A DNA stretch of 34,904 nucleotides, from IMG/VR virus record IMGVR_UViG_3300049070_000183, positions 1 to 34,904 of that record; one strand, written 5' to 3'. Below, one piece after another: positions 441 through 34,777 of this stretch; position 1 is the stretch's first letter, and the number at the start of each line of letters is the position of its first letter. Under the pieces are notes generated by a model. It was not told where the DNA came from. It saw only the letters and a program-made list of their open reading frames with translations, and made no database searches. A program made the position numbers and the translations under genes. This DNA is from a virus. Lineage: Duplodnaviria > Caudoviricetes.

Positions 441-905
441 ATGAAATTCAGATCGCATAGTCTTTTGTTTGTTTTGCTTATCGTAACCGCTCTCGCATTC
501 GCTTATGGCTACGGCTTGATGACCAATTCGCTTAATGCTTCAGGGCATGATCGAAATAAGAAATCAGTAGGCTTGATCAGTGAATCTATACGAATCACAG
601 CTAAAGACGGAGCGAAACCCATAGGACAATTGATCAGGGAGCAAAGCTCAATCGAAATACCGGATCAGGCAATATCGAGCTTTCATTTTCTGGTCGATCC
701 ATTCAGCGATGCGCTGATATTGCCGAGGGTCGAAGGCTTTCAGCCTTTGGGATTTCAATATGCGATCCTGCCAGGGCAGGACAAGGAATTTAAAATCCCG
801 GAGATTCCGATCAGCGCGCCGGAGGCGCTAGACTTCTTTCTGGTCAAAAGCGCGCAGGCGACTAATTTTATTGTGGTGATAGAGTTTTACCCGAAGAACA
901 GATGA
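441..905 (+). CDS. Secreted or N-terminally anchored beta-rich protein
   Basis: 154 aa; basic N-terminus then hydrophobic stretch LLFVLLIVTALAFA. Confidence 0.7.
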   Translation: MKFRSHSLLFVLLIVTALAFAYGYGLMTNSLNASGHDRNKKSVGLISESIRITAKDGAKPIGQLIREQSSIEIPDQAISSFHFLVDPFSDALILPRVEGFQPLGFQYAILPGQDKEFKIPEIPISAPEALDFFLVKSAQATNFIVVIEFYPKNR

Positions 906-1114
906 ATACGAACAAGCCGCAAACCGTTCCCATTGTGACGATTCCCGGCGACTCCGACCATATTACGATTGTCTGCCCGGTGTGCGACAAAGGTGGCGTG
1001 TGGGCTGTCCCGCATGGTTTTCAGATTGCCATACAGGGAACGTTGCTTGTGACGTGTTCAAACGGTCACAGTTGGGGGATCTATAGACCGTGGAAAAAAG
1101 ACGATGACGACTGA
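902..1114 (+). CDS. Small Zn-ribbon-like protein
   Basis: CPVC...CSNGH; ATGA overlap with upstream gene. Confidence 0.65.
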   Translation: MNTNKPQTVPIVTIPGDSDHITIVCPVCDKGGVWAVPHGFQIAIQGTLLVTCSNGHSWGIYRPWKKDDDD

Positions 1115-1610
1115 AGAAATCAAAAATCTAGTTGTCAGCAAGGCAAATCAGTACGGGATCAATCCGGGGATTGCCTTTGCCCAGATCCAGCGAGAGAGCG
1201 GCTTCAATCCGCGTGCGGTTGGTGGATCTGGCGAACGCGGTCTAGGCCAGTTCATGAAAGGCACTTGGGATCGGTTTGGCTTAGGCTCTTTTGATAACGC
1301 CTTTGATCCGGTGATGAATCTTGACGCTTGGGGCAACTACATGGTCTACCTCATGGCCTTGTTCAACGGCGATTATCTCAAAGCCCTGACCGGCTACAAC
1401 GGGGGAGAGGGTCATTTGACAGATCCGGGGAAATACGGGCCTCCATCAGCCGCGGCGAGAGCTTACGCCCAGGCGATCTATTCACAGGCCGGTTTTACTC
1501 AAAGCTCTGTCGTCTCCCTCGATCAAATAGAAGTCGCTCCCGGAGGCTTTCCGACATGGCTTATAATAGGCGCGGCTGGATTGCTGATCTGGTTCGCTTT
1601 CAGTGATTGA
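1104..1610 (+). CDS. SLT-family lytic transglycosylase with C-terminal membrane anchor
   Basis: IQRESGFNPRA (catalytic Glu), GLGQFM, ALTGYNGG motifs; C-terminal WLIIGAAGLLIWFAF. Confidence 0.92.
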   Translation: MTTEEIKNLVVSKANQYGINPGIAFAQIQRESGFNPRAVGGSGERGLGQFMKGTWDRFGLGSFDNAFDPVMNLDAWGNYMVYLMALFNGDYLKALTGYNGGEGHLTDPGKYGPPSAAARAYAQAIYSQAGFTQSSVVSLDQIEVAPGGFPTWLIIGAAGLLIWFAFSD

Positions 1611-19851: not shown

Positions 19852-20970
19852 ATGAAGATTCAAAAAGTCTGGCGCAAAGACCTGGGCGAATGGCGTTACA
19901 AAATTGACGTGACTGTAAACGGCCAGCGATTCAGGCGGGCTGACTTTGAAAAGAAATCAGATGCCAAAGACGCTATATCGGCATTGAGACTGAAAGCCAG
20001 GTCCGAACGCTATGGGCTTATTTCACCAAAGCCAAAGATCACACTCCGGGCATTGAAAAACAGTTTAGTGAAAGATCGAAAAGACATTCGGATCTTCACA
20101 GAGTTTATCGGACTGGCCGGCTCGGAGACTCTATTGACGGATCTCAACCGAGGTGACTGGAAGAAATATGTTGACTGTCTTCGGGCAAGAAAATGCAAAC
20201 CAGGGACAATCAATCGCTATATGGCCGAAGTATCAAGCATCTTGTCTTCGGCTTCAGAAAGATTCCCAGATCTGGACGAATGGCGTTGTCCTAAAATTCC
20301 GTGGCTGACTTGGCCACAAGGGAGACAGCGAGTTTTATCAAGGGAAGAGATTTCAAAAATCCTGTTTGCTCTCAGAGCCGAGCGCCAACACTACGAACAG
20401 TATTTCTCAGTCAAAAACAGAGCCGAGGTCTTAGACCTATTTCGGCTCATGCTTCTCACGGGCGCAAGGGAGGGGGAGATTTTAAATCTCAGACAAGACC
20501 AAATCTCATGGGACTGGCGAACGGTCAGGATTGAATCCCGAAAGGGCGGCGGGTCTGTTCGCGTTGTCCCGCTGTCCGATTCGGCTCTTGAAATCTTGCG
20601 ATCTCGTAATCATGGGCCAAGATTCTTTTCGATCAATAGGGATAAGCTCTATAGAGTCTTGAATCGAACGGGCGAAAGCTCCGGCGTGGCTTATGGCGAC
20701 AACATAGACAATGGTTGGGTGATTTACGATCTCCGGCATGTTGCGGCCACAGTCATGGAGAATGCCGGCATCCCATATAGCGCCGTCTCGGCAATTCTCG
20801 GCCACAAACGAAAAGACCAAACGGCCACTTATGCCCATGCTCAGTTGGACACGCTTAGGCGAGCGGTTGAAGTTCTCGAAACCCATTGTCGAGAGATTGA
20901 CGGGTTCTTTTCTGAAAAGCGGGCAAAATCAGGGCAGGGAGAGACAATGCTGCAGCAAGCATCCGGCTAG
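19852..20970 (+). CDS. int: Tyrosine recombinase / phage integrase
   Basis: N-terminal arm-binding-like domain, PGTINRYM, LLTGAREGEI (R), RKGG (K), YDLRH, ILGHK, TATYAH (Y). Confidence 0.95.
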   Translation: MKIQKVWRKDLGEWRYKIDVTVNGQRFRRADFEKKSDAKDAISALRLKARSERYGLISPKPKITLRALKNSLVKDRKDIRIFTEFIGLAGSETLLTDLNRGDWKKYVDCLRARKCKPGTINRYMAEVSSILSSASERFPDLDEWRCPKIPWLTWPQGRQRVLSREEISKILFALRAERQHYEQYFSVKNRAEVLDLFRLMLLTGAREGEILNLRQDQISWDWRTVRIESRKGGGSVRVVPLSDSALEILRSRNHGPRFFSINRDKLYRVLNRTGESSGVAYGDNIDNGWVIYDLRHVAATVMENAGIPYSAVSAILGHKRKDQTATYAHAQLDTLRRAVEVLETHCREIDGFFSEKRAKSGQGETMLQQASG

Positions 20971-21120
20971 AAGTCTTGTAATATCAATAGTTTTGTCTGC
21001 GCGGAGCCGGTTTAGATAAGCCCGCCAAATCCTGACCGATAATCCGGTTTAAATCCTGTAAACCGCCAAATAGCTAGATTTATAAGCGGGCCTGAAAGTT
21101 TTAGCGTCGAGATTTTGCCC
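20921..21120. other. Candidate attP region
   Basis: At and after the int 3' end; inverted GGGCAAAATC (20921-20930)/GATTTTGCCC (21111-21120); direct repeats CCGGTTTA x2, CCGCCAAAT x2, AAATCCTG x2. Confidence 0.5.
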
Positions 21121-21238
21121 ATAAACGGCCTACATTGGTCTTGAAATCGTCAACCCTTATCAGGGTATAGGTAGGGCTGAAATCGTGGCTCAGGCATTAA
21201 GCAGACTTAAAAGCGGCGGGGTGTAGAAGAGAGCGGGA

Positions 21239-21296: not shown

Positions 21297-21590
21297 TCAG
21301 GTCAGGCGCTTAGGCGTTGCTACGCTCCCTATACACAGTGGTACAGCGCGGCTCAAAACTTCTTTTGGATCGAGTTTCTGACCTCTCGGCTTGCGCCGTC
21401 TCCGATCCTGATTGAGCGTTGCCATATCGTGATGTATGTCCCACAACAAGTGTCTCAGATTTTTGAGTTGATTGCGCTCAAAGCGCCCACTCTTTTCAAC
21501 TGCTGTAATAGCCTCTTTAGTCATCCGATCTAAGAGGCGAATACTTTCGCGCAATTCTCGTAGCACGTCGAGCTTTTGTATTTTTGTCAT
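21297..21590 (-). CDS. Hypothetical basic helical protein
   Basis: 97 aa; ATGA coupling. Confidence 0.6.
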   Translation of the reverse strand: MTKIQKLDVLRELRESIRLLDRMTKEAITAVEKSGRFERNQLKNLRHLLWDIHHDMATLNQDRRRRKPRGQKLDPKEVLSRAVPLCIGSVATPKRLT

Positions 21591-21976
21591 CGGTGAAAGC
21601 CTTTCTTGTTTCCGACTCCGACGATTCGCCCAGGCTGGACAGCGCCTTGCATTTCGGCTTGCGCTTGTAACTGCGCGCTGATTTCATCTTTGATGTTGTC
21701 TTTTCGTTTGGCTTTGCGATCTTTCAAAAGCCGTTCGAGGGTCATCATGTCGTCAAGGCCAAGATCATACTCTTCATCATTGATCATTGTCAGAATCCAC
21801 TTGTCGGCCTCCTCGGCTTTCGCAAGGCTGGCGATATTGCCCAGGCTAATCGCGGCGTCTCCGTTGCAGATCGGCACAAGGCCGAGAGAGAAGGTGATAA
21901 ATTCAAAGTCGAAAAGCTCAGCCGGCAAAAGCTCAGCGTCAGTGACTATCATTTCGGGCTTATTGTTCTCGCTCAT
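21587..21976 (-). CDS. Hypothetical protein
   Basis: 129 aa; AGGAG RBS; coupled. Confidence 0.7.
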   Translation of the reverse strand: MSENNKPEMIVTDAELLPAELFDFEFITFSLGLVPICNGDAAISLGNIASLAKAEEADKWILTMINDEEYDLGLDDMMTLERLLKDRKAKRKDNIKDEISAQLQAQAEMQGAVQPGRIVGVGNKKGFHR

Positions 21977-22233
21977 TTTTCTTCAGTCTCCTTTTCTCGG
22001 CTAAAAATTACTGTCACGAATGGCGGGCAAATGATTTTATCGGTTAGCCACCAACCATTGTTTAGTAAGTCTCGCATCCCCGCATCATTGGCGCGGGCAA
22101 CATCTCGATGCAATTCAAAAGTTTTGACATCAAACTCAAGATTGGGCCTGTTGAATCCGCGTCTAAATCCCTCTTCGACTCCGATGCTATGAAAGGCATT
22201 TTCGATCTTTGCGCCCATTTCACTTTTGCTCAT
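21973..22233 (-). CDS. Hypothetical protein
   Basis: 86 aa; AGGAG RBS; coupled. Confidence 0.7.
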   Translation of the reverse strand: MSKSEMGAKIENAFHSIGVEEGFRRGFNRPNLEFDVKTFELHRDVARANDAGMRDLLNNGWWLTDKIICPPFVTVIFSREKETEEK

Positions 22234-22564
22234 TTTTCTTTAGTCTCCTTTTCTTCGATTTCAATTGCGTTTCTGTTTGTCCCGCTCTCTCTCGATAGCA
22301 GGCTTGCATGACTTCAATCGTTCGCCTGATTTGTTGTTCTCTCCCGACAGTGAGAAGGCTGACAAGATTGGTTGAAATACCAAATCGCTTTGCTATCAAG
22401 TCTCGAATCTCTACAAAGACTTGATCGGTTGATTGCGTTGACCATTTGTCTACACGCTTTCCATATTCGGGATTGTTTGCAAGCCAATCCTGCAACATAT
22501 TCCAACGGCCATCAGGCGTTAGAGCTTCGAGGTCAGGGAAGAGTGATGTAAGGTCGATGTTCAT
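22220..22564 (-). CDS. Hypothetical protein
   Basis: 114 aa; GGAGGG RBS. Confidence 0.7.
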   Translation of the reverse strand: MNIDLTSLFPDLEALTPDGRWNMLQDWLANNPEYGKRVDKWSTQSTDQVFVEIRDLIAKRFGISTNLVSLLTVGREQQIRRTIEVMQACYRERAGQTETQLKSKKRRLKKNEQK

Positions 22565-22713
22565 GATTTGCCCTCCTTCGTGCTGAGAACTTTGCTTAAC
22601 ACCTCAGCACTAAAATCACAGAACAACCCCCAAAGCATCATGCTCCAATGAATGTTTGGAACGTTCGACATCCACAGCGAAGCCATTACAGTCGTGAAAA
22701 TCATCCTGTTCAT
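22561..22713 (-). CDS. 50-aa hypothetical peptide (absent from ORF track)
   Basis: MNRMIFTTVMASLWMSNVPNIHWSMMLWGLFCDFSAEVLSKVLSTKEGKS; ATGA overlap at both ends; GGAGGG upstream. Confidence 0.55.
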   Translation of the reverse strand: MNRMIFTTVMASLWMSNVPNIHWSMMLWGLFCDFSAEVLSKVLSTKEGKS

Positions 22714-24116
22714 TCTTCGCCCTCCTGACTCTCTTTGATAAGTTTTTGAAGCTCAGCCGTCCACGAAGCCGCATGAGGCAATGCCGCAACTTGCTCCCCG
22801 CCTGGAAGCCCTTTCACAAATTCAAGAACTTGCTCTGTCTCCATAGAGCCGAGCAAATCAATGTAGCCATCAATCGAATAGTCCGGCGCCTGTTCGTTAA
22901 TCGCATCGGCGTAGTTGACCAATTGCTGAAACGCCACTTGGACCGGGACATTGCGCTGACAGTTCTGAATCAGTCTTGTGAGGGCGTGTTGTTCGGGCGT
23001 GATGGCTGCTTGATTCTCAGATCCTTGTGCATTTGCCACAGGATCCTGAATCGCGCTAGCCCCTTGCCCTTCGGGTAGAGTAGGTAACGCTGGCCTAGAT
23101 TCTTGCGGGTTTGCGCCTTGCGTATTCGCCAAAGGCGGAACCGCTTGCGCTCCCATCTCCGCTTGCCCATTGTTTTGTCTCCCTGGAAACAGGCCACTAA
23201 AGCCGTTGAAGATTCGATCTATCGCTACTTGCACGATCTGTGCGGCCTGTCCTGATTTCACGGCGTCTCTTACTACATCCGCGTACCACGGCTCATTGTC
23301 TTTTCCATCTGAGCCGCCGAATCGTTTGATCACAGATCCCACAACCGTTTCGATCACTTCAGGCTGTTTCAAAATCGCGCTCGATAGAATCTCTTCTTCG
23401 CTGCGCTGTTGTTGCTGTGGTTGCTCAGGGGCAAAGCCGTAAGCCTCGCGCATCAACTTGGCCATCTCAAGTTGTTCTTTCAAAGCCTCGCGCTGAGTTT
23501 TCATGATGTCCTTGATCGACATCGGTACTTGCTGCGCTTGGCCGTCGCCGTTGGCCGATTGATAAACCACTTGCGGGGAAGTGGGATCATTCGGATTGAC
23601 GTGTTGAATGTTTGGCGTTGTAGGGCCAAGTCGTTTTTCCCATGACGCGACAACCTTACTGCCAGGACTCTTTCCGGGCATGTACATTCGCAACGTAAAC
23701 CAATATGTTCCCGCTCCCCACTTGCGAGCAACATCAAGATAATCTTCATTCACGATCTGTTCTTTAGTGCAGATGTACCTTGTCAGAAATTCTTTGTCGG
23801 CCCATGAGCCTCCCTCCGATGACTCGCTATGCAAATATCGCTCGATGGAAAGCCTTAACTGAGCGGCTGGCGCGATGTTGTGTTGCGCAAGAAGCTCTCG
23901 CAATTTTGTATGTTCATCTTTTACTTTTCGACGTGGCCTGTTTTCAATAGAGTCCCCGTCAAGCCCCTCCTCATCTTCTTCGGGCGCTTCTTCAACGGGG
24001 TGTAGTTCAACCCACTCAGTTTTGTGTTTAACTTCTCTGACCTTGATTTGATCGTTTTCGTCAGGCGGCAGTAGTTCGACTTCGACAGGCTGTTTCTTCG
24101 GTTTTCCTCGCGGCAT
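22710..24116 (-). CDS. Large Gln/Glu-rich protein of unknown function
   Basis: 468 aa from ATG 24116 after GGAAGGAG; folded segments separated by low-complexity linkers; no Walker motifs. Confidence 0.8.
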   Translation of the reverse strand: MPRGKPKKQPVEVELLPPDENDQIKVREVKHKTEWVELHPVEEAPEEDEEGLDGDSIENRPRRKVKDEHTKLRELLAQHNIAPAAQLRLSIERYLHSESSEGGSWADKEFLTRYICTKEQIVNEDYLDVARKWGAGTYWFTLRMYMPGKSPGSKVVASWEKRLGPTTPNIQHVNPNDPTSPQVVYQSANGDGQAQQVPMSIKDIMKTQREALKEQLEMAKLMREAYGFAPEQPQQQQRSEEEILSSAILKQPEVIETVVGSVIKRFGGSDGKDNEPWYADVVRDAVKSGQAAQIVQVAIDRIFNGFSGLFPGRQNNGQAEMGAQAVPPLANTQGANPQESRPALPTLPEGQGASAIQDPVANAQGSENQAAITPEQHALTRLIQNCQRNVPVQVAFQQLVNYADAINEQAPDYSIDGYIDLLGSMETEQVLEFVKGLPGGEQVAALPHAASWTAELQKLIKESQEGEE

Positions 24117-24135
24117 TTGGCTCCTTCCCACGTAG

Positions 24136-24169
24136 AGCGAAAAATATTTTTCGCTGAGTTTGGTGTCAA
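24136..24169 (-). promoter_or_regulatory. Leftward sigma70-like promoter overlapped by a perfect 20-bp palindrome
   Basis: TTGACA-N17-TATTTT on - strand; AGCGAAAAAT/ATTTTTCGCT at 24136-24155. Confidence 0.7.
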
Positions 24170-24347
24170 GAATCAACTGATAATTAAGTTGATGAGATGT
24201 ATAGCTAATCTCGAGTCAACCTAACGAACGTAAAGCATATACGCCTTAAACCTAACAAATGTCAACCTTTAGGGGCTTGACACCTAAGGTTCTTCCGTGG
24301 TTTCTTGCGCCCGATGTTGGCTGTTTGGTCATCGCAGAGGTCAAGTT

Positions 24348-24947
24348 ATGACGGTTCGAGGCGCGGCTTTTCCCACGACCAGCGGTCAACATCTCGCTGT
24401 CAAAATCGCCGCGCCTCCCGTCTCCCATTCAATCGAGTATAGACCCCTAATCGACGGAGACGCGGGAACGTTTCAAACCTTAGACGCGATGGTCGACGCC
24501 GTGCTTGGTCGCATTGGGCCTGACTATTCCGGCTTCAATGATCCATTCAATATCAAAGCCGCTCAGCAGATTGTTTCTTCAGCGTCCAGCCAGGATGAAA
24601 GGGCGCAAATAACCGCTCTGTTCAATTGGGTGATTGCGAACATCGCCTACGAACCGCACCCAATCAATCAACAGACATTACAAGATGCCAGACGGACACT
24701 TGAGTTAAAGAGAGGCGATTGCGTTTCGCTCAGCGTCCTACTCGCAACATTACTTGCTTCACTTTTTTACGAACCGCGTTTTGTGGCTCAGTGGCCAAAC
24801 GGAGAAGAGGCGTCCCACGTTTATGTTGAAGTTTTGTTATCTAACGGTGAATGGCTCGCCTTAGACGCTGTAGCCAAAGACGAGCCAATTGGATGGCGTC
24901 AACCGAAACTAGACGGCGGCTTTGAGTACGCCCAGGAGATTTTGTAA
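24348..24947 (+). CDS. Transglutaminase-like (papain-fold) enzyme, possible protease
   Basis: RTLELKRGDCVSLSVLLATLL (Cys), SHVYVEV (His), WLALDA (Asp); first gene of virion operon. Confidence 0.9.
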   Translation: MTVRGAAFPTTSGQHLAVKIAAPPVSHSIEYRPLIDGDAGTFQTLDAMVDAVLGRIGPDYSGFNDPFNIKAAQQIVSSASSQDERAQITALFNWVIANIAYEPHPINQQTLQDARRTLELKRGDCVSLSVLLATLLASLFYEPRFVAQWPNGEEASHVYVEVLLSNGEWLALDAVAKDEPIGWRQPKLDGGFEYAQEIL

Positions 24948-25306
24948 TGGATGACTACTTTGAATTTTGGGGATTGCCTTATACCTACGGGATTGTCCCC
25001 GTTGACGAATCGCCATCGAGACAGCCGACATCAAGCGCGCCGTCTTATGAGACGCCCTATTGGATAGACACCATCAATCGAGGGATTGAGCGGGCCGCGC
25101 AAGTGGCTACTGTCGCAGTCGGCGGCTATCCGTCGTATCCAAGCTATCCAGCGCCTACGCCGCAACCAACTCCCATGCCTATGCCTGCACCGGCGCCGGG
25201 AGTTCAACCGCAATCACCGGGGAGCGGGATTCAACTTTCACAAACAACGCTGATGCTCTTAGTTGGGGGCGTGTTGTTGTTCATGCTCGGCAAGAGGGGG
25301 CGATGA
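24947..25306 (+). CDS. Pro-rich protein with C-terminal TM anchor (putative virion membrane protein)
   Basis: PAPTPQPTPMP linker; TLMLLVGGVLLFMLGKRGR. Confidence 0.8.
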   Translation: MDDYFEFWGLPYTYGIVPVDESPSRQPTSSAPSYETPYWIDTINRGIERAAQVATVAVGGYPSYPSYPAPTPQPTPMPMPAPAPGVQPQSPGSGIQLSQTTLMLLVGGVLLFMLGKRGR

Positions 25307-25309
25307 CGT

Positions 25310-25477
25310 GTGGCGACTTATTTTGACAAGCGAGAGGGAAGGGAAAAGGCCGTGCCCGATTGCTCGAAACACGGCTTGCAATGGAATCCCAATTCGCAAC
25401 GTTGCGAACGGCCAATGTTTTCAGGGCTTCTGACGCTTGGCTTTGTCGGCTTATTGATCTGGCTTTTTAGGAAATAG
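25310..25477 (+). CDS. 55-aa Cys-pair protein with C-terminal TM (absent from ORF track)
   Basis: GTG start after GAGGGGG; MATYFDKREGREKAVPDCSKHGLQWNPNSQRCERPMFSGLLTLGFVGLLIWLFRK. Confidence 0.7.
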   Translation: MATYFDKREGREKAVPDCSKHGLQWNPNSQRCERPMFSGLLTLGFVGLLIWLFRK

Positions 25478-25479
25478 TC

Positions 25480-26556
25480 ATGGGAATGGAGCAAGGCGGC
25501 TACATAGAGGGGGACGAACAGGGCACGTATGGTTACGGCGGCGGGGGAGACTTCAATCTCAGCATGGGCGGGGGCGGTGATAGTTTTGCCATTGATTACG
25601 CGGCGGATTATGGCGGGGCATATAACTTCACAGGCGATTACAGCGGAGTTGGCACAGGCGCGGAGTATGGCGATTCAGGCTATCAACCGGGCGGCGATCT
25701 CTATGGAGCGTACGTTGATTACTACACAGAATCGGGCTTTGATCTCACAACGGCGATGGAACTGGCCGCACAGGACGCGGCAGCGGGATCGGTCGAGATT
25801 GCAACAAGCGAAAGAGGGCTACTACCTGACGCCTTAGGGCCGGAGACTTACTATGGTCTGCCATATATTCCCGATTCGTTCCTGACGCCTTACACGCCGA
25901 TCTTTCCCGATCTTCCCGCGCCGCTTCCACCAATCGTTACGCCGATTATTCCGTTTACAGTTCCCGCGCCTCCGCAAGTTCCATTGCCGCAGACGCCCGG
26001 TACAGGGCCGATTCCGATTGCTCCGGGCCTGCCTCCGGCATGCCCCACTGGTCAATATCACCCTTATCCAATCGGGCATCCACAGCAAAACGTCTGCATC
26101 CCGTTTCCGTCTGCTCAAACAGGGTCAAGACCGCAGCAACAACAACGACCGTCAGGATCGAGTGGAGGGGCATCATCAACGCCAAAGCCGCCACAACAGC
26201 AGCAACAAGGGCAATGCCCCACGGGTTACTGCAAACACCCAACGGGGCAGTGCATGCCGATCCCGCAAGGATACTTTCGACACCCGACGACACAAGTTTG
26301 CTCGCCACGTTGCACGACGCCGGGGACTGTCTTTGACCAATCAAGGGGGCAATGCGTTCCGGTCGCTCAGGCCGTCAACCCTTTGCCCGGATCGCAAGCA
26401 CATGGGACTGAATTACCCGAAGGCGCTGAAGGCTTGCTTGATGAATTATCGAAACTGCCGTGGTGGGTATGGTTGGCTCTTGGAGGCTTGCTGCTATTGA
26501 GCCGGGATGGTGAGGACGGCAAGAAAACGACAGTCACTTATAGGAGGGCGCGTTAA
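25480..26556 (+). CDS. Gly/Tyr-, Pro- and Cys-repeat protein with C-terminal TM
   Basis: Acidic GY-rich N-terminus, Pro-rich middle, CPTG...C repeats, LPWWVWLALGGLLLL. Confidence 0.85.
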   Translation: MGMEQGGYIEGDEQGTYGYGGGGDFNLSMGGGGDSFAIDYAADYGGAYNFTGDYSGVGTGAEYGDSGYQPGGDLYGAYVDYYTESGFDLTTAMELAAQDAAAGSVEIATSERGLLPDALGPETYYGLPYIPDSFLTPYTPIFPDLPAPLPPIVTPIIPFTVPAPPQVPLPQTPGTGPIPIAPGLPPACPTGQYHPYPIGHPQQNVCIPFPSAQTGSRPQQQQRPSGSSGGASSTPKPPQQQQQGQCPTGYCKHPTGQCMPIPQGYFRHPTTQVCSPRCTTPGTVFDQSRGQCVPVAQAVNPLPGSQAHGTELPEGAEGLLDELSKLPWWVWLALGGLLLLSRDGEDGKKTTVTYRRAR

Positions 26557-27269
26557 TGGGCTGCTGTGTCGGCTGTCAATCGGGGATGGGTTGTTGCGAT
26601 GACTATAGCCTTGCTGGTCTGTATGGCTTGAGCGGCTTGAATGGCCTGATGGGCGAACTAGCGACAGGCTCACGCGTCAGGGTGGGCTTGGAGTTTGAAT
26701 TTAGTCATGCGTATGACCCTGACGAAACAGAGGCGATGGGCGCCGGACCTATTCAAAATCTGTTTTATGACCAATTCGGCCCACCGACATTCAAGGACAC
26801 GCGCGTTACGGTTCAAATGCCGACGTTTTGGAGCGATGGTTATGTGACTGTCGAGGCTACAAGCATGACGCCATTGCCGTATGCCAGCGTCTTTGGGCAA
26901 ATGGTCGAGAACGCCTTTAAGAGCTATCTGCCCCGTTACATCTGGGAGAAGACCCATGAGACGTTGGTTGACTACGCCCCGCCGACTCCTAACGCGCAAC
27001 CCGCTGGGCCTCCGCAAATATGCGATTTGAGTCAATTAGGATTGCAAGAATACTTCGACTGTCAGCTAGGCCGTGGCAGATGGGCGAAGCAACAAACACA
27101 GAATCAAAATCAACCCGGTCAACCGTCGAAGTGCGCGGGGATGTCGCCCGGTGATTGGATTGCCTGCCAGCTGGGGATTACGCCGACTGCCGGCATAGCG
27201 GCGGGAGCAATTGGATCACTGGTTTTAGTCGGCGGGGTTCTAGCGCTTGTGGTGTTTTTGAAGCGATGA
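26556..27269 (+). CDS. Putative virion membrane protein with C-terminal TM
   Basis: Cys-rich N-terminus, GL-x repeat, two C...CQLG repeats, hydrophobic C-terminus ending KR. Confidence 0.85.
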   Translation: MGCCVGCQSGMGCCDDYSLAGLYGLSGLNGLMGELATGSRVRVGLEFEFSHAYDPDETEAMGAGPIQNLFYDQFGPPTFKDTRVTVQMPTFWSDGYVTVEATSMTPLPYASVFGQMVENAFKSYLPRYIWEKTHETLVDYAPPTPNAQPAGPPQICDLSQLGLQEYFDCQLGRGRWAKQQTQNQNQPGQPSKCAGMSPGDWIACQLGITPTAGIAAGAIGSLVLVGGVLALVVFLKR

Positions 27270-28369
27270 AGCTAACCGATCAAGAGCAAGTGATCTTGAA
27301 AGCGATTGGGAACGACGTAGCTGAAGTCTCCCGCGTGATCAAAGCCGTTGGCTATCCGAAGGCGACAGTAAAAAAAGTCTTGGTCGGGCTGAATGAAAAG
27401 GGAATCGTCGCCCTCCATCGCCACGATTGGCCGAAATCACTAGAGCGTGAGCAACGCAAGCTCATGGTCAAGATCGGGAGCAATTACTACAACGCGGTAA
27501 GTGTGATGAGAAGAAACCCTAAACAATCGAAAGGCAAGACGGCGCTGAAGAAAACAGGGCGAGCGCTAAAGGGCTTCGCTCGCGGGACGCTTCAGTCTGG
27601 CGCTGAAATTCTAGGAGCGGGAGCGATGGCATTGAATCCAACTCGAAAACGAAAGAAGGCGACGAAGAAGAAGCGAAACAAGACCGTTATCAAAGCTAAG
27701 CGTGTTGTCGTATTGAATCCGAAAAAGAAAAGGGTCAAGCGCAATGCTTCAAGAACTGTGTCTACCGCTAAGACTGCGAAACGTCGGGCCAGGTCTTCTA
27801 GTCAAAATAGTCGCAAGAAAGCAACGCCCCGTATTCGATCCGTGGCTAAGGCTCGCAAGGCTCCGGTTAAGAGAGCTTCTAAAAGAACGCTCAAGAAAAG
27901 CTCCGGGCTGTTGAAGAAGGGGCGCAAGCGAAACAACCCTTCGGCTGAATCAATCCGCAAAGAGTTTGCCGGATCTGTCAACGGCGAGCGTGACTTGTTT
28001 TTCCCGCAAGGGACGCCATCGGGGAAGCTCGCCAAGTTGGGCAAGCTCGTTTCGATCACAACAGAAGAGGGAACTATCAAACCTGTCTCCGGCTCGGCGT
28101 GGCTGTGCGCTGATACGAAAGAACGGCTTCATATCGGATCAACATCGAACGCGCCTTTGTTTAGCGGGCCTGCGCATAGTTTTGGGAAGGTTTCAAAAGT
28201 TGAATATGAAAGCTCAAAGCCGCACTTAGGGTATCGAGGACCGATCATTTGGTTTCACCACATGGGCGAAGGCGGGGGAAGTCGCCCTTCGCTATACGCA
28301 GATGGAAAGGGTGGTTTGAAATTCAAAGGGGGCAACTACCGATTAACGAAGAGAGGTATCGAGGGCTAG
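27266..28369 (+). CDS. Lys/Arg-rich putative DNA-condensing core protein with N-terminal wHTH-like domain
   Basis: Start at ATG 27266 (ATGA); LTDQEQVILKAI...KATVKKVLVGLNEKGIV; long basic region with RRNP, LNP, LNP, RNNP. Confidence 0.8.
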   Translation: MKLTDQEQVILKAIGNDVAEVSRVIKAVGYPKATVKKVLVGLNEKGIVALHRHDWPKSLEREQRKLMVKIGSNYYNAVSVMRRNPKQSKGKTALKKTGRALKGFARGTLQSGAEILGAGAMALNPTRKRKKATKKKRNKTVIKAKRVVVLNPKKKRVKRNASRTVSTAKTAKRRARSSSQNSRKKATPRIRSVAKARKAPVKRASKRTLKKSSGLLKKGRKRNNPSAESIRKEFAGSVNGERDLFFPQGTPSGKLAKLGKLVSITTEEGTIKPVSGSAWLCADTKERLHIGSTSNAPLFSGPAHSFGKVSKVEYESSKPHLGYRGPIIWFHHMGEGGGSRPSLYADGKGGLKFKGGNYRLTKRGIEG

Positions 28370-28995
28370 CCATGACGCTTCAGATATTCAATCGCGGCGG
28401 TCAGAAGTTCGGCGCTTTCTCTAAAGCTACCCAATGCTTGATTGCAAAAACTGCACAGCAAGCCGCGCACTTTGCCGGTTGTGTGATTGTGGTCTACCGC
28501 CAACGAAAAACCCTCTATTTGAGATTGGCGACATATTGCGCACAGATGACCTTGCGCCTCCAACATCATTTCATATTCAGTCAGCGTAATGCCGTATTGC
28601 CTACGGAGCCAAGAATTTTTGTACGCCCGGTGACCTCCTCTTTTATAAGACTCTCGTTTAAGTCTACGGCGTTGTTCACGGACATGAGGCAAGAGATTGC
28701 GAGTCGTGGTGCATGTTTTACATTGATTGGTCAATCCGGTTGGAGTTGTTTTGTTCGACCAAAACTCAGAGGCGTCTTTAATGGTTTTGCAGCTTTGACA
28801 CCGCTGTTTGGTAATTTGAGGCTTTGGTGTACGCCCACGCCGGAGCACATTACTTCTATTAACAGCCCTTGCACATTCAATGCAAAAGCGCATCAGTCCA
28901 TATTTACCTCTACGATCTTTCCAAAATTCAGTGACCGGCTTTTCCGACTTACATTTACTGCAAACTTTGGTAGATGGTATGGTGGGCTTAGTCAT
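28366..28995 (-). CDS. Recombination endonuclease VII-family (free-standing homing-type) nuclease
   Basis: YGITLTEYEMMLEAQGHLCAIC...LAVDHNHTTGKVRGLLCSFCNQALG; two N-terminal CxxC...CxxC repeats. Confidence 0.93.
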   Translation of the reverse strand: MTKPTIPSTKVCSKCKSEKPVTEFWKDRRGKYGLMRFCIECARAVNRSNVLRRGRTPKPQITKQRCQSCKTIKDASEFWSNKTTPTGLTNQCKTCTTTRNLLPHVREQRRRLKRESYKRGGHRAYKNSWLRRQYGITLTEYEMMLEAQGHLCAICRQSQIEGFSLAVDHNHTTGKVRGLLCSFCNQALGSFRESAELLTAAIEYLKRHG

Positions 28996-29080
28996 GCTGT
29001 TCGTACCTCAATTACGAATGATGTGATTAGGCTCGTTCGGGAGTTTGCCGCTCTCGTTCGAGCCGATCCCATTCTATCAC
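28996..29080 (-). promoter_or_regulatory. Own promoter and structured 5' leader of the EndoVII gene
   Basis: Extended -10 TGATAGAAT; hairpin GGCTCG..CGAGCC (29030-29064); hairpin TTCGTA/TACGAA (29000-29018) enclosing GAGG. Confidence 0.6.
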
Positions 29081-29180
29081 GATTCAGCCGCAATCTTAAC
29101 AACTTTACAGTTTTGTGCGTGTGCGCCGCTGCCGCCGCCCACATGAACACAATATCGAGCAGCGAGAAGGGGGAGGCTTT

Positions 29181-29933
29181 ATGTCTCTCATAAGAAGGCG
29201 CGTAGTGAACCCGGCTCCGTCCGTGCTCGCTCTCGTCAACAAAACAAAGAGAGGTAAAACAATGGCTACTCGCAAAAGGAGACGTAGCACAAAGCGGCGC
29301 GCTGTACGGCGTACCCGCTCACGTAACCCGGTCAATCCGGTGAATCCGGCTCGCAGGCGGCGGCGCAGATCCAGACGGTCAACCGTTTATGCCCGTCGTC
29401 GCAATCCGATCAATCCCACTCGACGCCGCAGGCGCATTGGTCGCCGCAGGGCAAGGCGCAACCCGGTGACGGGCGTATTGGGTCGGGCCATTCCATTGGT
29501 CATCGGCTCGGCTGTGATTGGCGCAACCGCTCCATTCACGGCTCAAATCGTCGGGAGATTCGCGCCACAGTTGTTGGGGAATCCCATCGGCGTTGCGGCA
29601 ACGACCTTTGGAACTGGATGGGCGTTGTCACTACTCGCCGGAGCTTTCGCGTTTACGCGCAAGTGGAAAGACGACGTGATGTTGGCCGGCGCCGTGTTGG
29701 CAGGCGGTCAACTGTTCACGGCGTATGTTGCCCCGATGATTCCTCGACTTGGTGGAGGGCGGGGGGGAAACGGAATGGGCCGGCGTTACAACCGCAACGG
29801 AATGATGTCCGGCATTGGTGTAATGACCTCTATCCCGCCAGGTATGGCGACTCTTCCAGCGCCGCAAGGTAATAACAACGGCATGCAAGGGATTGGCGTG
29901 ATGACGGCGATCCCTCCGGGGATAGCGCGTTAG
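29181..29933 (+). CDS. Arg-rich protamine-like protein with hydrophobic C-terminal half (putative core/membrane protein)
   Basis: Start at ATG 29181 after GGGGGAGG; poly-Arg blocks separated by RNP/VNP/INP; about three hydrophobic helices; C-terminal GIGVMTxIPPG repeat. Confidence 0.85.
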   Translation: MSLIRRRVVNPAPSVLALVNKTKRGKTMATRKRRRSTKRRAVRRTRSRNPVNPVNPARRRRRRSRRSTVYARRRNPINPTRRRRRIGRRRARRNPVTGVLGRAIPLVIGSAVIGATAPFTAQIVGRFAPQLLGNPIGVAATTFGTGWALSLLAGAFAFTRKWKDDVMLAGAVLAGGQLFTAYVAPMIPRLGGGRGGNGMGRRYNRNGMMSGIGVMTSIPPGMATLPAPQGNNNGMQGIGVMTAIPPGIAR

Positions 29934-29969
29934 GGCGAAAATAAATCAAGCAGGAGAAGGAGAATAAAT

Positions 29970-30815
29970 ATGTATCCAATGTACGACCAGTCGCCGCAGT
30001 TCAATTTTACCGGCTCATCAATGCCCGGACTGCCGACTACGCTTAATCACATCAATCCGGGCTATTACGCTCAACTCGCGGGCTTTCTCTCGGAGAAATA
30101 CGGCAGGCCGGAAAATGCGCGTCTCGCGTCAATCAACGGTGTTGAGCTTTACGACACGTTGAGAGTTGATACAGGCGCGCTACCTCTGCGCGAGTTCATC
30201 TTTTTTCAAACTCCGGTCGGTCAAAACCAAAACTTGCTGGTCGCTGGTACGGCCTATCAGAAACAAGAGATCGACGTCCATCCGTGGATCGTCCAGGGCG
30301 GACAATTGGCCCTCGGCTATGAGGCGTTGATTTGGAATGTTGGCGTACAGGTCCATATCGTGCAAGCGAATGACGCCACGCTGCAAGCGGCGGGCAATAC
30401 GATCAACCTGACAGCCACGACAGGCACACTTGCCGCCGAGGTCGCCGCCGATCCGCAAAGGATGGGCAACTTGATGCGGGCCTTTCAAGAGGGCTTGTGG
30501 TTCGAGTTCTTCATCAATCAAACAGGCTTCGAGAACGGGCCGCTTTGGAGATTCCCGGCCGGTATCTACGGCATCAGCGGACAGAACGCGATTGCCGATA
30601 CGACGACAGCGGGGGCTGATGGCCTCAGCGCGGACGGTTGGGCGAACAACGGCTTCGGCGTGGCTTATCAGTTCCCGGTGATGCGGCATCTGCCGAGTCA
30701 AACCAAATTCGGCATGCGGCTGAAGATTCAAAACTCGTTTACGACTCCGGCCGGCTTCTCGACTCGTATCGTTGTGACGCTCGGCGGAATCGGCATACAA
30801 CCAATCACAGGCTGA
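29970..30815 (+). CDS. Probable major capsid protein, single jelly-roll-like (inferred)
   Basis: Doubled RBS AGGAGAAGGAG, terminator right after, alternating beta-strand pattern, C-terminal FPVMRHLPSQTKFGMRL...IVVTLGG. Confidence 0.65.
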   Translation: MYPMYDQSPQFNFTGSSMPGLPTTLNHINPGYYAQLAGFLSEKYGRPENARLASINGVELYDTLRVDTGALPLREFIFFQTPVGQNQNLLVAGTAYQKQEIDVHPWIVQGGQLALGYEALIWNVGVQVHIVQANDATLQAAGNTINLTATTGTLAAEVAADPQRMGNLMRAFQEGLWFEFFINQTGFENGPLWRFPAGIYGISGQNAIADTTTAGADGLSADGWANNGFGVAYQFPVMRHLPSQTKFGMRLKIQNSFTTPAGFSTRIVVTLGGIGIQPITG

Positions 30816-30844
30816 TTTCTGGCGTTCGGTTCTTCATCGCTAGT

Positions 30845-30888
30845 TGTGGGGCGGGGCTTTTGCCTTGTCTCGCCCCACAGTTTTTTTT
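30845..30888 (+). terminator. Intrinsic terminator after putative MCP
   Basis: TGTGGGGCGGGGC/GTCTCGCCCCACA stem then GT8. Confidence 0.85.
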
Positions 30889-30899
30889 CAGGAGAGAGC

Positions 30900-31151
30900 A
30901 TGAACCCGACTAAAAAAATAGGCCGATACTTAGTGCCGATTGGATCTGTGGCCGTGATCGAAGAGAGAAACACGTCAGGCTGGCGCAGGCTCTTATTGTG
31001 GCGAAAACCGGGCTACAACGCGCTGCTCAACAATGGTCGAGTGATTCATTTCACTGAAGCCGAAAAAGCCGAATACGAAAAGGCTGTTGAATGGCATGTC
31101 GTGACTCTCGAATGGTACGGCGCGGCCAGAGGCATGGGGCTGAGAGGCTAA
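30900..31151 (+). CDS. Small hypothetical protein
   Basis: Start at ATG 30900 after AGGAG. Confidence 0.7.
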   Translation: MNPTKKIGRYLVPIGSVAVIEERNTSGWRRLLLWRKPGYNALLNNGRVIHFTEAEKAEYEKAVEWHVVTLEWYGAARGMGLRG

Positions 31152-31165
31152 AGGAGAATTTCATT

Positions 31166-31639
31166 ATGTGGTTTTTTACGAAGTATATTTACAAGATCCT
31201 CGATTTCTACAGAACGCATTTGATCTTCTACGACACGATTCCCATAGGCTTTACCGGGGTCGCAAGTGAACGTCCTGCGCCGGTCTTTACCAACGAAGTG
31301 TCAGAGGACGTGTTGTATTTCGGCGGGCAATTGTCTTTCAGTGTGGCCGACGTGCTGGTTAGGATAAAGTCCATCAGTCCGCAATACGAATGGATGGTCA
31401 ATGACGATCCCGCTCCACAGGATACGCCGGCTAATGCCGTGTTTGGCGTGTTCAGTCAAGCTCTCCCGCTTATTCCGTGGGTGTCTCCGTTCTTTCTAAA
31501 AAAGAATGGCCGTTTGCAATTGCAATGGACCAACAGCGCGGCGGCGGCGGTTACGGGCGGCTTCGTGACGCTGCATGGTCTTCGATTGACCAATCCGATT
31601 AATGGGTCCGGTTGGGATTACAGCGTGGGCTTGGTTTGA
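31166..31639 (+). CDS. Putative single jelly-roll-like capsid protein
   Basis: Start at ATG 31166 after AAGGAG; PFFLKKNGRLQLQWTN...VTLHGLRL. Confidence 0.6.
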   Translation: MWFFTKYIYKILDFYRTHLIFYDTIPIGFTGVASERPAPVFTNEVSEDVLYFGGQLSFSVADVLVRIKSISPQYEWMVNDDPAPQDTPANAVFGVFSQALPLIPWVSPFFLKKNGRLQLQWTNSAAAAVTGGFVTLHGLRLTNPINGSGWDYSVGLV

Positions 31640-31641
31640 TT

Positions 31642-32694
31642 ATGAACAACAATCAAGCGACTAAAACTTGTCGGATAGACACAGGGGATTTTGTCGGCTC
31701 GGCTCTCACAGGGCCGGAATGGACGCCTTACGCGCAAAGAATAGCCGATCATTACCCTGTTCAACTTCTGTGGTATCTGACCAAGCAACAAACGCTTGTG
31801 GTCGCGGATCCTAGAAACCTTCAGGCGCCGGTAACGCAGACCATAAGGCCACAACTATACGACGTGTTGATTTTAGGGATGTCGGCGCTGATTGTCGGAG
31901 AAGCCCTGCTGGACAACGGCAATTACATCTATCTTCAGATCACGGATCTTGAAACGGGTATTCCGTGGGTCGCCCCGAACATGATTGGCTACGCCCCTGT
32001 CCCCGCGTTCGCCGGGATCAATGCCGATCCGTCAACCGGGACTTTCTTTCCGATGCCCGTTTTGAAACTGCCTGAAGCCTATTTTCTGCCGAAGGGGACA
32101 AGGCTCAAGCTCGATTGGTTTCCCATTCAGGAAACCGATGGCGATCCGGTGAATTTAAACGTTCGCCTCACAATGATCGGAGTGCAATTGATCAATCACG
32201 CTCCGGGCTTCAAAGCGCCGACTCACGTAACCATGCCTAATGGCGACACTATTCCTGTAGGGTCGAGATTGCCGTGGTTCGGCTGTGTGCCTTTCGGCCA
32301 GAGAGACATAATTCTAGGCCAAAGAATATTGCAGGACTTCTCATTGCAGGACGACGAACAGGCTTTACAGTTTTTGCCGCCACTCGAATGCAACCTTGAA
32401 TTGCATGACGCTTACGCCAATTTTCTAGCTCAAACAGTCCGGCCCGCGGCTAAGGTCAATCTCAAACTTAAATTGAACGACATGCGGGACAACGGCGACT
32501 GGACGCCGGAGTTTTCTCCATCACCCGCAATATTCGGCAATGAGGAGCAAGTCTATCCCGCAAGACCTTTCGCCAAACCTCATCTAGTTAGAAAGGGCCA
32601 CAGGCCGGCATTGGTGATGTTCAACAATAGCGGCGCCGGGGCATTGAATCGTGGGACTGTGACTTTCCGGGGCGTCCGTCTTTGTGAGTATTGA
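31642..32694 (+). CDS. Putative tandem (double) jelly-roll-like capsid protein
   Basis: Two related halves ending AYFLPKGTRLKLDW...LTMIGVQL and PHLVRKGHRPALVMFN...VTFRGVRL. Confidence 0.6.
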   Translation: MNNNQATKTCRIDTGDFVGSALTGPEWTPYAQRIADHYPVQLLWYLTKQQTLVVADPRNLQAPVTQTIRPQLYDVLILGMSALIVGEALLDNGNYIYLQITDLETGIPWVAPNMIGYAPVPAFAGINADPSTGTFFPMPVLKLPEAYFLPKGTRLKLDWFPIQETDGDPVNLNVRLTMIGVQLINHAPGFKAPTHVTMPNGDTIPVGSRLPWFGCVPFGQRDIILGQRILQDFSLQDDEQALQFLPPLECNLELHDAYANFLAQTVRPAAKVNLKLKLNDMRDNGDWTPEFSPSPAIFGNEEQVYPARPFAKPHLVRKGHRPALVMFNNSGAGALNRGTVTFRGVRLCEY

Positions 32695-32696
32695 TT

Positions 32697-33224
32697 ATGC
32701 TTCAACTGCAACATATGCGTAGGATCGTCCAAGCCTGCTTTCCCGAAAACAATCAGGAGGCGAAGGAAATATGGAACGACATCAAACCCATTAAATTCGG
32801 GGCGACTCAGCCGTGGATTACCGATGCGGCCATTACGCTAGCGATATATCAAGTTCCCGAAGACGCGGCATATCTATTGATTTTACGGACTGAATGTTAT
32901 GTCACTACGTTTGATCCAACGGCTGTTGGATTCGGGCAATTCTCTCCGCCTCCTGACGGCACGGCGTCATGGCAATACACTGATGTCGGGGTTGGCAATA
33001 CTCAATATAGGATCACTCCGGTTATGGACATGAACATTCTTCTTGACTGCGAGGAGTTTCTATTCGCTAAGGGCGATCATCTAGTGACATTGGTTGCTTC
33101 AGTCACAGCCCCAGACGCCGTGGAGAGATTCATCAGAACGCTTGTTTACGGGTATCTGATCAGCGCTGAGATTGCGGGTAGGCTTGGTGGAGACGAAACG
33201 GTCTATTTCAGTTTTACTGTGTGA
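32697..33224 (+). CDS. Putative beta-sandwich virion protein (penton/minor capsid candidate)
   Basis: IYQVPEDAAYLLILR...FLFAKGDHLVTL...TLVYGYLI. Confidence 0.55.
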   Translation: MLQLQHMRRIVQACFPENNQEAKEIWNDIKPIKFGATQPWITDAAITLAIYQVPEDAAYLLILRTECYVTTFDPTAVGFGQFSPPPDGTASWQYTDVGVGNTQYRITPVMDMNILLDCEEFLFAKGDHLVTLVASVTAPDAVERFIRTLVYGYLISAEIAGRLGGDETVYFSFTV

Positions 33225-33227
33225 GCA

Positions 33228-33926
33228 ATGCTGTCTTATGAGAGAAGGAAAACTTTCAGGGGAATCGGCGGGGGTGGCGCGCAAGCCGGGGCTGTTGTCT
33301 TCATCTCTGATTCATTTGTCAATTATGCCGCAAGGGTAAATACGCTAATTACGGCGCCCTTGAATATTCAAGACGGCGACGATCTGTTGATAATCTTTGA
33401 AGATGGGGCGTTGAATGCCGCGCCAGTTCCAACGCCTCCGGCTGGATTCAATATCGTGACGGGCTTTCCGCTCACGCGGGCTGATAGCAATGGCTTCACG
33501 GTTGATACTTATGCATGGCGTAAACCGGCATTGGCCGAAGCGGGAGATTATACAGTCACGCATGCGAACGCGACCAGCAACGCATGGATGCAAGTCGCCA
33601 GGGGGCAAAATCTCATAACGCCCTACGATCCCAACCCAACGACAAATACGGGCCTGGGCGACACGGCGACAGCGCCAAGTTTGATCACGGCCGTTGACAA
33701 TTCGCTGATCGTTTACTTTTGCTCGAAGTGGAATTTTCCGGGCATCACTCCCCCAGGCGGCGTGACGCCAACATTGACAACGCGGCTCGACGGCTCGGCC
33801 ACACTGCTTTTTGTCTCGAACGGAGTTTTGGCGACAGCCGGGGCAACGGGAAACAAAATCGCAACGGGCCTTCCCAATACCCCTACAGAGCCGTGGGCGA
33901 CAGGGCTTATAGCGATTAGACCTTAA
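33228..33926 (+). CDS. Putative spike / receptor-binding protein
   Basis: Thr/Ala/Gly-rich beta protein: IQDGDDLLII, PTPPAGF, YAWRKPA, ATAPSLIT..DNSLIV; Gly hinge near N-terminus. Confidence 0.65.
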   Translation: MLSYERRKTFRGIGGGGAQAGAVVFISDSFVNYAARVNTLITAPLNIQDGDDLLIIFEDGALNAAPVPTPPAGFNIVTGFPLTRADSNGFTVDTYAWRKPALAEAGDYTVTHANATSNAWMQVARGQNLITPYDPNPTTNTGLGDTATAPSLITAVDNSLIVYFCSKWNFPGITPPGGVTPTLTTRLDGSATLLFVSNGVLATAGATGNKIATGLPNTPTEPWATGLIAIRP

Positions 33927-33933
33927 TACAACT

Positions 33934-34128
33934 ATGGCGACATCATACGAAAAACGACACCAGCCGGACGAATTGAGTTATCACAAACGACCAAGCGGCG
34001 CCGGTGTCGCGTTGCCTATTGGCAGTTTTCTTTTACTTCAAGACGATGATGGAAGCGAGACAAGTATTTTGCTTCTCGAAGACGACGCCGGCGCGGAAAT
34101 CTCCGGCCTGAATTTACAGGACGATTGA
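33934..34128 (+). CDS. Small acidic virion adaptor-like protein
   Basis: SYEKR/SYHKR repeats then LLLQDD, LLLEDD, LNLQDD. Confidence 0.65.
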   Translation: MATSYEKRHQPDELSYHKRPSGAGVALPIGSFLLLQDDDGSETSILLLEDDAGAEISGLNLQDD

Positions 34129-34131
34129 TAT

Positions 34132-34764
34132 ATGTCCGACAAACTACCAGCGTTAGGTAATCTAGCTACTCCGGCTCTGACCGACTTGCTTTATATAGTC
34201 ACGCCGGGGATTGATCCGCTTGGGTCGTTCAATATTACCTATGCGCAGCTTCGGGCGGCATTGCTCGCGGGCGTTGGAGTCGCATTTCCTTCAGACATTA
34301 CGCCGCAGGGCAATGCGGCTGGTGGGGCTTTAACAACTCTGCAATCGTTTGTCTTGCCCGCTGGAAGTCTCGGCAGTAATGGGGACTTTGTCAGATTCAC
34401 TTACAGTGGGACTTTTGCGACTAATGATAACGACAAGAGAATCCAAATCCTGATCGATGGCCAGGTGGTAGAAGACTTTGGCCTCTTCGATTTTGACGCC
34501 GGAGTATGGCGCGTAACGGGAGAACATGTACGGCTTACATCTACTAGCGTTCTTGCGGGGTGTGGTGGTCAATATGGTGAGCCGCTTGTTATAGACGAAG
34601 GAGTCATAGCCGGAACGCCGGATGTTATCAATCTACCTCGAAACAGAACGTTAGCCGTGGCTGATCTGGATTCCAACGCCATCACTTTAGAAGTAGTCGG
34701 CGCCGCTGCGGCCGCGAACGACATCATACAAACTCTCTCAATTTACGAGCTTATTCAATTCTAA
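34132..34764 (+). CDS. Putative spike / fibre protein
   Basis: N-terminal KLPAL...TDLLYIV...NITYAQL fibre-attachment-like motif, then beta-rich domain. Confidence 0.65.
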   Translation: MSDKLPALGNLATPALTDLLYIVTPGIDPLGSFNITYAQLRAALLAGVGVAFPSDITPQGNAAGGALTTLQSFVLPAGSLGSNGDFVRFTYSGTFATNDNDKRIQILIDGQVVEDFGLFDFDAGVWRVTGEHVRLTSTSVLAGCGGQYGEPLVIDEGVIAGTPDVINLPRNRTLAVADLDSNAITLEVVGAAAAANDIIQTLSIYELIQF

Positions 34765-34777
34765 ATATCAACAGGAG

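Follow-up and report, generated by a model that had tools for sequence, protein, structure and literature searches.

Genome and late module

The DNA considered here is IMG/VR virus record IMGVR_UViG_3300049070_000183, analyzed over its whole length of 34,904 nt ("the window"), and the question is what kind of virion its late genes build and how the genome gets into it. The termini of the window are identical over 127 nt, giving a 34,777-bp circle with no N, and the join is spanned without a break by a relative from a separate assembly with another start point (G006; 34,308 bp, terminal repeats; 98.8%–99.8% identity by blastn). An earlier note, made from the sequence alone, had called the genome circular and complete, and both the terminal repeat and the relative that runs across the join bear this out. 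G006 has 15.1 kb in common with the window at 99.8% and differs in the early region.

Related records were recovered with the capsid candidate described below: five further ones with terminal repeats (34.3–39.7 kb) and one partial record of 27.8 kb. The genes common to these relatives, named by start position where they have no better label, are 22710, 22220, the transglutaminase-like gene, the membrane-protein genes, those of two basic proteins, 29970, 30900, 31166, 31642, 32697, and a lytic transglycosylase (SLT) gene. The late module is found together with terminal repeats in six separate records of 34–40 kb, and the lineage is real, complete, undescribed, and of family level. The main features of the module in the window are as follows.

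24348..24947 (+), enzyme of transglutaminase-like type, Cys-His(-Asp), encoded at the start of the rightward late operon (PF01841, E 2.3e-14)
24947..27269 (+), four proteins (119, 55, 358, and 237 aa) with hydrophobic C-terminal segments, likely virion membrane proteins, homologs in relatives
27266..28369 (+), basic protein, isoelectric point (pI) 11.3, variable-length Lys/Arg tracts and a conserved C-terminal domain, likely core protein or nucleoprotein
29181..29933 (+), Arg-rich protein with Arg runs, pI 12.0, whose C-terminal part has two hydrophobic helices, likely to condense DNA and tether it to a membrane
29970..30815 (+), predicted major capsid protein of 281 aa, its predicted fold a single jelly roll that carries insertions
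30844..30889 (+), intrinsic terminator-like hairpin and U-run directly 3' of the capsid gene (−26.1 kcal/mol, z −3.65, stability matched by one shuffle in 200)
30900..31151 (+), small basic protein between the capsid gene and the 157-aa gene, conserved in 5/5 complete relatives and in G007
31166..31639 (+), 157-aa beta protein, putative single jelly roll by homology to the 350-aa halves, likely penton or minor capsid protein
31642..32694 (+), 350-aa double jelly roll with two homologous halves (predicted fold), likely minor capsid protein
1104..1610 (+), SLT with a C-terminal membrane anchor, last late gene (PF01464, E 3e-19)

Packaging motor, head, and tail genes

Searches of 66 open reading frames (ORFs) of the window against Pfam and PHROG (E ≤ 0.05) returned no large terminase, portal, HK97 capsid, tape measure, tail tube or sheath, or FtsK/A32 family, and NCBIfam, run on 29 of the window's ORFs, returned none of those head, tail, or motor families. 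The earlier note's list of missing genes (terminase, portal, HK97 capsid, tape measure, FtsK/A32) therefore holds, and the profile searches for terminase, portal, and A32 that it proposed as a check found no match in the window. A six-frame search of the window with Pox_A32 and Terminase_6N was likewise empty (0/1 at E ≤ 1; the Terminase_6N search was positive in 8 of 14 control genomes). The complete relatives gave 0/5 at E ≤ 0.1 with Pox_A32 and FtsK, for which 7/14 and 14/14 control genomes, respectively, were positive. Neither terminase nor portal was found among 179 non-overlapping ORFs of the relatives (at least 150 aa, with only the first 18 kb of G006 included and shorter ORFs covered by motif scans alone), where the sole NTPase family was AAA_25, in G003, G004, G005, and G006. 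Because complete relatives with the same module also have no detectable Pox_A32 or FtsK, the lack of packaging motor genes is, by these sequence searches, a trait of the lineage and not a peculiarity of the window.

A strict Walker A pattern scan of the circle in six frames gave five matches, two of them in long ORFs: the primase-helicase (8442–10451; AAA_25) and a DnaJ-domain protein, the latter matching by pattern only. The only Walker A within a P-loop family is that of the primase-helicase, as the earlier note had read it. No canonical Walker A was found in G002 ORFs of at least 100 aa, and G001 has two pattern-only matches that lack a preceding hydrophobic strand. Across 57 metagenome loci (370 kb, partly redundant), strand plus motif occurred in three ORFs, of 510 aa (a homolog of the basic 27266 protein), 289 aa, and 150 aa.

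Two matches are exceptions. The SLT domain matches the PHROGs "internal virion protein with endolysin domain" and "lytic tail protein," in the SLT part only, and the excisionase helix-turn-helix (HTH) has a weak match to PHROG "terminase small subunit" (E 4e-5) that ranks below its excisionase match (E 8e-9). The longest late ORF in the window has 488 aa. As to the hallmarks of Caudoviricetes (large terminase, portal, HK97-fold capsid, tail genes), the family searches of the window were empty, and the capsid candidate is predicted to fold as a jelly roll.

Capsid candidates

Folds were predicted for the 281-aa and 350-aa late proteins, and both are jelly rolls. The closest structural match of the predicted single-jelly-roll protein is SPV1 (Sulfolobus polyhedral virus 1, Portogloboviridae; PDB 6oj0), a virus of archaea from hot springs. 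We infer that the 281-aa protein is the major and the 350-aa protein a minor subunit because the 281-aa gene has the highest G+C content at third codon positions (GC3) of 25 gene entries measured (0.67, and 0.62–0.67 in six relatives, vs. 0.58 and 0.52–0.62 for the 350-aa gene), a strong Shine-Dalgarno match where that of the 350-aa gene is weak, the better conservation (minimum score ratio 0.46 vs. 0.25), and a terminator that isolates the genes downstream, among them the 157-aa and 350-aa genes. This hairpin is kept at the same place in 3/3 relatives folded (z −3.2 to −4.7) and is not evident in L006, where an HNH gene interrupts.

The 157-aa gene is the most conserved core gene, and hhalign matches its product to each half of the 350-aa protein at 98.2%. 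Since the two halves resemble each other and this neighbor, the sequences point to an origin of the double jelly roll by local duplication; the double domain is absent from a sister subgroup. For the 350-aa fold, cellular DUF2961/GH172 scores equal capsids. Profiles of the capsid, 157-aa, 350-aa, and 488-aa proteins found nothing credible in PDB, the best being the 350-aa protein against the PBCV-1 capsid at E 0.17. No profile link was found between the 281-aa and 157-aa proteins, and a hint of kinship between the 281-aa protein and the N-terminal half of the 350-aa protein (28%) was discounted. A tblastn search with the capsid protein and a distant homolog, P0140, found no match in GenBank phages, P0140 found none in plasmids, and three sub-alignment scans for the gene context of distant capsid clusters gave no new locus.

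Genes likely to act on the DNA and the membrane

Of 35 partly redundant loci whose flank is long enough to tell, 34 have the gene of the Arg-rich 29181 protein immediately 5' of the capsid gene. Full-length homologs of the other basic protein, 27266, have about 340–900 aa and 20%–26% Lys plus Arg; its N terminus has a weak winged-helix match (TrmB, E 0.0075) below the cut-off. Hydrophobic C-terminal segments are present in the 24947, 25310, 26556, and SLT products; among the four proteins of 24947..27269, a Kyte-Doolittle threshold of 1.6 detects them in three, and that of the 358-aa protein was assigned by eye. The Cys and His of the transglutaminase-like enzyme are invariant in 12/12 sequences, and SLT homologs have the catalytic Glu in 19/19, most with a hydrophobic tail. 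The late operon as first described, with its Cys-His enzyme, SLT, basic proteins, and membrane-anchored proteins, was seen again here, and an endonuclease VII gene is added to it.

Proposed virion and alternative explanations

With a probability of roughly two in three, we read the window as the complete circular genome of a likely temperate bacterial virus that would build an SPV1-like single-jelly-roll shell around pre-condensed, likely membrane-tied DNA, with no detectable ATPase, terminase, or portal. From the circle, the absence of motor genes here and in five complete relatives, the gene order, the predicted folds, and the expression signals, we infer the following route. Late transcription would run in both directions from 24177–24347. 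The Arg-rich 29181 protein would bind the DNA circle and anchor it in a membrane patch that contains the small anchored proteins, and the 27266 protein would compact it further. The 281-aa jelly roll would then polymerize as hexamers on the membrane, with pentons made of the 157-aa jelly roll, and the 350-aa double jelly roll, a low-copy duplication of the 157-aa-type domain, might form special capsomers near the vertices that bear variable spikes. The Cys-His enzyme may cleave or cross-link virion proteins, and the anchored transglycosylase may open peptidoglycan at entry (or exit). Lysogeny would depend on the integrase, the excisionase-like HTH protein, and an Arc-like switch. By analogy, condensation of the genome would come before assembly of the shell around it, an order also suggested for the Odin and FLiP groups (PMC5894146).

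The earlier interpretation, in which a tailless virion module free of a packaging ATPase is combined with a temperate arm, gains support from the predicted folds and the five complete relatives. Its ATPase-free reading also stands, and SPV1/Portogloboviridae, FLiP, and the Odin group offer precedents for it (PMC8812541 and PMC5894146); SPV1, the closest structural match, had not been named. The internal membrane, part of that earlier description, is suggested by hydrophobic segments only.

The 350-aa double jelly roll could instead be the major capsid protein of an ATPase-less virus of the Varidnaviria type, like the Odin group and FLiP, with the 281-aa protein an abundant accessory or inner-layer protein. 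We consider this unlikely, given that the 350-aa gene lies 3' of the terminator with a weak Shine-Dalgarno match and lower GC3, is less conserved and in its double form missing from the sister subgroup, looks like a local duplication, and encodes a fold that a cellular family fits as well as capsids do. If the shell is as we propose, the DNA might still be pumped by a motor that escaped recognition: a host translocase of the FtsK/HerA type, the viral primase-helicase, or a late-gene ATPase whose fold is unknown. Genomes of 34–40 kb, nearly twice that of SPV1 (20 kb) and far above those of the Odin group (7–11 kb), speak for such a motor, as do several conserved late proteins with no assigned fold and the AAA_25 helicase carried by 4/6 complete relatives. 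However, this helicase is exchanged or missing among relatives with the same structural module, no conserved late family has a Walker A, and two very basic proteins fit co-condensation, so that we rate a hidden motor as rather improbable.

Somewhat less probable again is an enveloped or pleomorphic particle, or one that borrows parts of a helper virus, with the jelly rolls serving in the envelope or as spikes. The many membrane-anchored proteins would suit it, single jelly rolls are common in spikes and lectins too, and no particle of the window virus has been seen. But the 281-aa jelly roll is soluble, conserved, predicted to be strongly expressed, and free of a membrane anchor, its nearest folds are capsid proteins, and the virus has its own full set of replication, integration, and cell-wall genes. 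That the window is a tailed phage with head and tail genes diverged beyond recognition, or a misassembled piece of a larger genome, we regard as very improbable. The early arm resembles that of tailed phages (Gp157, DnaB-N, and methylases in relatives), and look-alike clusters in the Atlas are mostly labeled Uroviricota, yet these labels are automatic and probably track the early genes, six separate terminal-repeat records of 34–40 kb carry the same module, no late ORF of the window exceeds 488 aa, and both proteins with a predicted fold are jelly rolls. Because look-alike clusters are automatically labeled Uroviricota, such viruses are probably miscounted as tailed phages in soil viromes.

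Comparison with known viruses

Two species of hot-spring viruses that infect archaea are known to have SPV1-type architecture. The window resembles them in its circular genome and the lack of a packaging ATPase, and its capsid candidate has a predicted single jelly roll.

Portogloboviridae have circular genomes of ~20 kbp with no replication proteins, a Saccharolobus (Sulfolobales) host, and a VP4-type single jelly roll, and their virion has an inner lipid layer, a coiled nucleoprotein core, and a T=43 shell (PMC8459092). Of these virion traits the window shows only hydrophobic segments and basic proteins. It differs from SPV1 in its bacterial-type peptidoglycan transglycosylase, soil habitat, genomes of 34–40 kb in place of 20 kb, its own primase-helicase and integrase, and an extra double jelly roll, with no detectable sequence similarity; probable host, size, and replication genes place it outside Portogloboviridae. 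The realm Singelaviria is defined by the vertical single jelly roll (PMC12714852, PMC10848233, and 10.1101/2025.02.15.638363). Compared with Helvetiavirae/Halopanivirales of that realm (P23-77, SH1, HHIV-2, HCIV-1), the window lacks the FtsK/HerA-type ATPase, and the expression signals favor one major capsid protein instead of two. Helvetiavirae build heterohexamers from two single-jelly-roll major capsid proteins; in the window, a predicted jelly roll of 281 aa and a putative one of 157 aa are both present, but a terminator lies between them and no profile links them. The Odin group and FLiP are similar in lacking a packaging ATPase, in encoding a double jelly roll, and in having a conserved gene directly 5' of the capsid gene as packaging candidate. 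Genomes of the Odin group have 7–11 kb (PMC5894146), however, against 34–40 kb here, and the double jelly roll of the window looks minor, varies within the family, and has halves that are alike in sequence. Unlike PRD1 and other Tectiviridae, the window virus is circular with an integrase and has neither a protein-primed polymerase nor a packaging ATPase. The Charybdis element was rejected as a relative, its hallmark protein being different (10.1101/2025.08.03.668216).

The window and its complete relatives likely make up a family, as yet undescribed, of temperate bacterial viruses that have no tail and probably contain a membrane. No bacterial, ATPase-less, single-jelly-roll family of double-stranded DNA viruses is described in the literature as judged from titles and abstracts, with few subscription papers and no supplements (that of PMC5894146 could list related contigs). 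If our reading is true, the SPV1-type virion plan extends to bacteria, a family- or order-level group is added near Singelaviria, a 35–40-kb genome can be encapsidated with no motor, the route by which helvetiaviruses are proposed to descend from a portoglobovirus-like ancestor becomes testable, and sequence comparison can trace a double jelly roll back to a neighbor with one domain. More tentatively, these would be bacterial counterparts of portogloboviruses that still live in the state from which Singelaviria are proposed to descend, with one capsid gene and no motor; they would be common in soils and belong to a far larger capsid superfamily of 88 clusters at 50% identity. Their virion might then be the first in which hexamers of single jelly rolls stand beside a double jelly roll that arose within the virus when its penton-type domain was duplicated. 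The double fold would in that case have originated independently, and its unfused state would be kept in the sister group.

Early arm and lysogeny

The early arm contains two features of particular relevance.

8442..10451 (−), Prim-Pol/PriCT/AAA_25 primase-helicase, the only credible P-loop NTPase
19852..21130 (+), tyrosine integrase (PF00589, E 3e-19) and the conserved non-coding stretch behind it, a candidate attP

The non-coding stretch has invariant blocks in 4/4 aligned genomes. The main integrase family is present in 4/5 complete relatives and some tyrosine recombinase in 5/5. Together with the HTH_17 protein (excisionase-like HTH) and divergent Arc/RHH-like genes, the integrase and its non-coding stretch indicate, at the level of gene content, a temperate lifestyle. 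The earlier "lambdoid-style" lysogeny and replication arm thus survives as a temperate early arm, whereas "lambdoid" is loose for an Arc/RHH and HTH_17 switch and a Prim-Pol/AAA_25 fusion. No integrated copy was seen; a scan of genome contigs for prophages gave a 4.7-kb contig in a metagenome-assembled genome (MAG) of Pseudomonadota, and a weak match in a Bacteroides MAG (E 5e-4) was disregarded.

Several side observations concern this arm. Over window positions 1–16000, the primase-helicase and other early genes are exchanged in G006, which has a different AAA_25 protein, while the late module and integrase are ~99% identical, a strong mosaicism. In run X8, an 83-nt contig (window 21113–21195) with a depth of ~1,100 breaks the assembly right after the integrase, beside the conserved non-coding blocks, and may mark attP or a strain variant. 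A serine resolvase/invertase is encoded at 3062–3682 (+); in relatives, the stretch 3' of the SLT gene carries either such a gene or one for a short tyrosine recombinase, in addition to the main integrase, which suggests that the slot serves dimer resolution. Genes for vWA-domain and DnaJ-domain proteins at 11407–13671 (−), common to G003, G005, and G006, have no accompanying MoxR-type ATPase. A stand-alone TonB C-terminal domain with an N-terminal hydrophobic signal, encoded beside a repressor-like gene (18196–18591, +) and absent from five more distant complete relatives, is a candidate superinfection-exclusion moron.

Host and habitat

Records from Blastocatellia MAGs include a homolog of the capsid protein (MBO0719214.1, 52%) and one of the integrase (35%), and a further homolog was placed on a short contig within a Pseudomonadota MAG; we lean toward Blastocatellia (Acidobacteriota) as host. 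The 20 runs listed with the late region are all soil metagenomes, with no RNA runs among them. They come from 15 studies, of which one may be the source; leaving that one aside, near-identical copies are found in soil runs from 14 studies. Four runs cover the region fully (30/30 bins of 15500–34904), and contig depth in run X8, from a soil virome rich in this virus, is 800–1100.

Other late genes and minor observations

The remaining late features are the following.

11..1114 (+), three variable late genes spanning the circle join (120, 154, and 70 aa)
21297..24176 (−), divergent leftward operon
28366..28995 (−), endonuclease VII-type homing endonuclease inserted in the operon (PF02945, E 8e-26)
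32697..33224 (+), conserved beta-rich protein, candidate vertex or spike base (36%–63% identity in G001–G005 and G007)
33228..34764 (+), three variable genes (232, 64, and 210 aa), candidate spike or receptor-binding parts

No profile links the 32697 protein to jelly rolls. The genes of 33228..34764 are patchy among relatives, some of which carry ORFs of 500–1100 aa instead, and the endonuclease VII gene is present in only two of seven relatives (G006 and G004). In the leftward operon, 22710–24176 (−) encodes a conserved protein of ~470–490 aa (488 in the window) that is acidic, largely helical, and free of a P-loop in an alignment of 10; it has no credible match in Pfam, PHROG, NCBIfam, or PDB and is a candidate scaffold or membrane-shaping factor. 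Its look-alikes in the Atlas are unnamed viral clusters, weak by the tool's own recognition score; one, with 2,413 members and a weak score of 0.90, hints at a much larger virus group.

No tRNA or Rfam family was found in the window, and its sigma-70 and terminator scans gave counts at chance (9 vs. 14.7 and 20 vs. 22.0). A terminator-like hairpin lies 3' of the SLT gene near 1663–1700 (z −3.9), and the two divergent late operons finish in hairpins (1663–1700 and 21237–21269) with nearly equal sequence tails; for the inverted repeat 1678–1699/21237–21258, an inversion site was weighed and set aside in favor of two similar terminators. An Asn-Pro dipeptide follows basic runs in the 27266 and 29181 proteins (eight times in 29181, four to nine in most homologs), which could form turns or be where the Cys-His enzyme cleaves. 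No clear second lysin is seen in the window; in G004, a glycoside hydrolase 19 (chitinase/endolysin-like) gene adjoins the endonuclease VII gene in the late operon (L018:8647–9411). The 25480–26556 product is Gly/Tyr/Pro-rich with Cys-paired repeats, and its homologs in G001 and G007 give weak matches to CBM_14 (chitin-binding).

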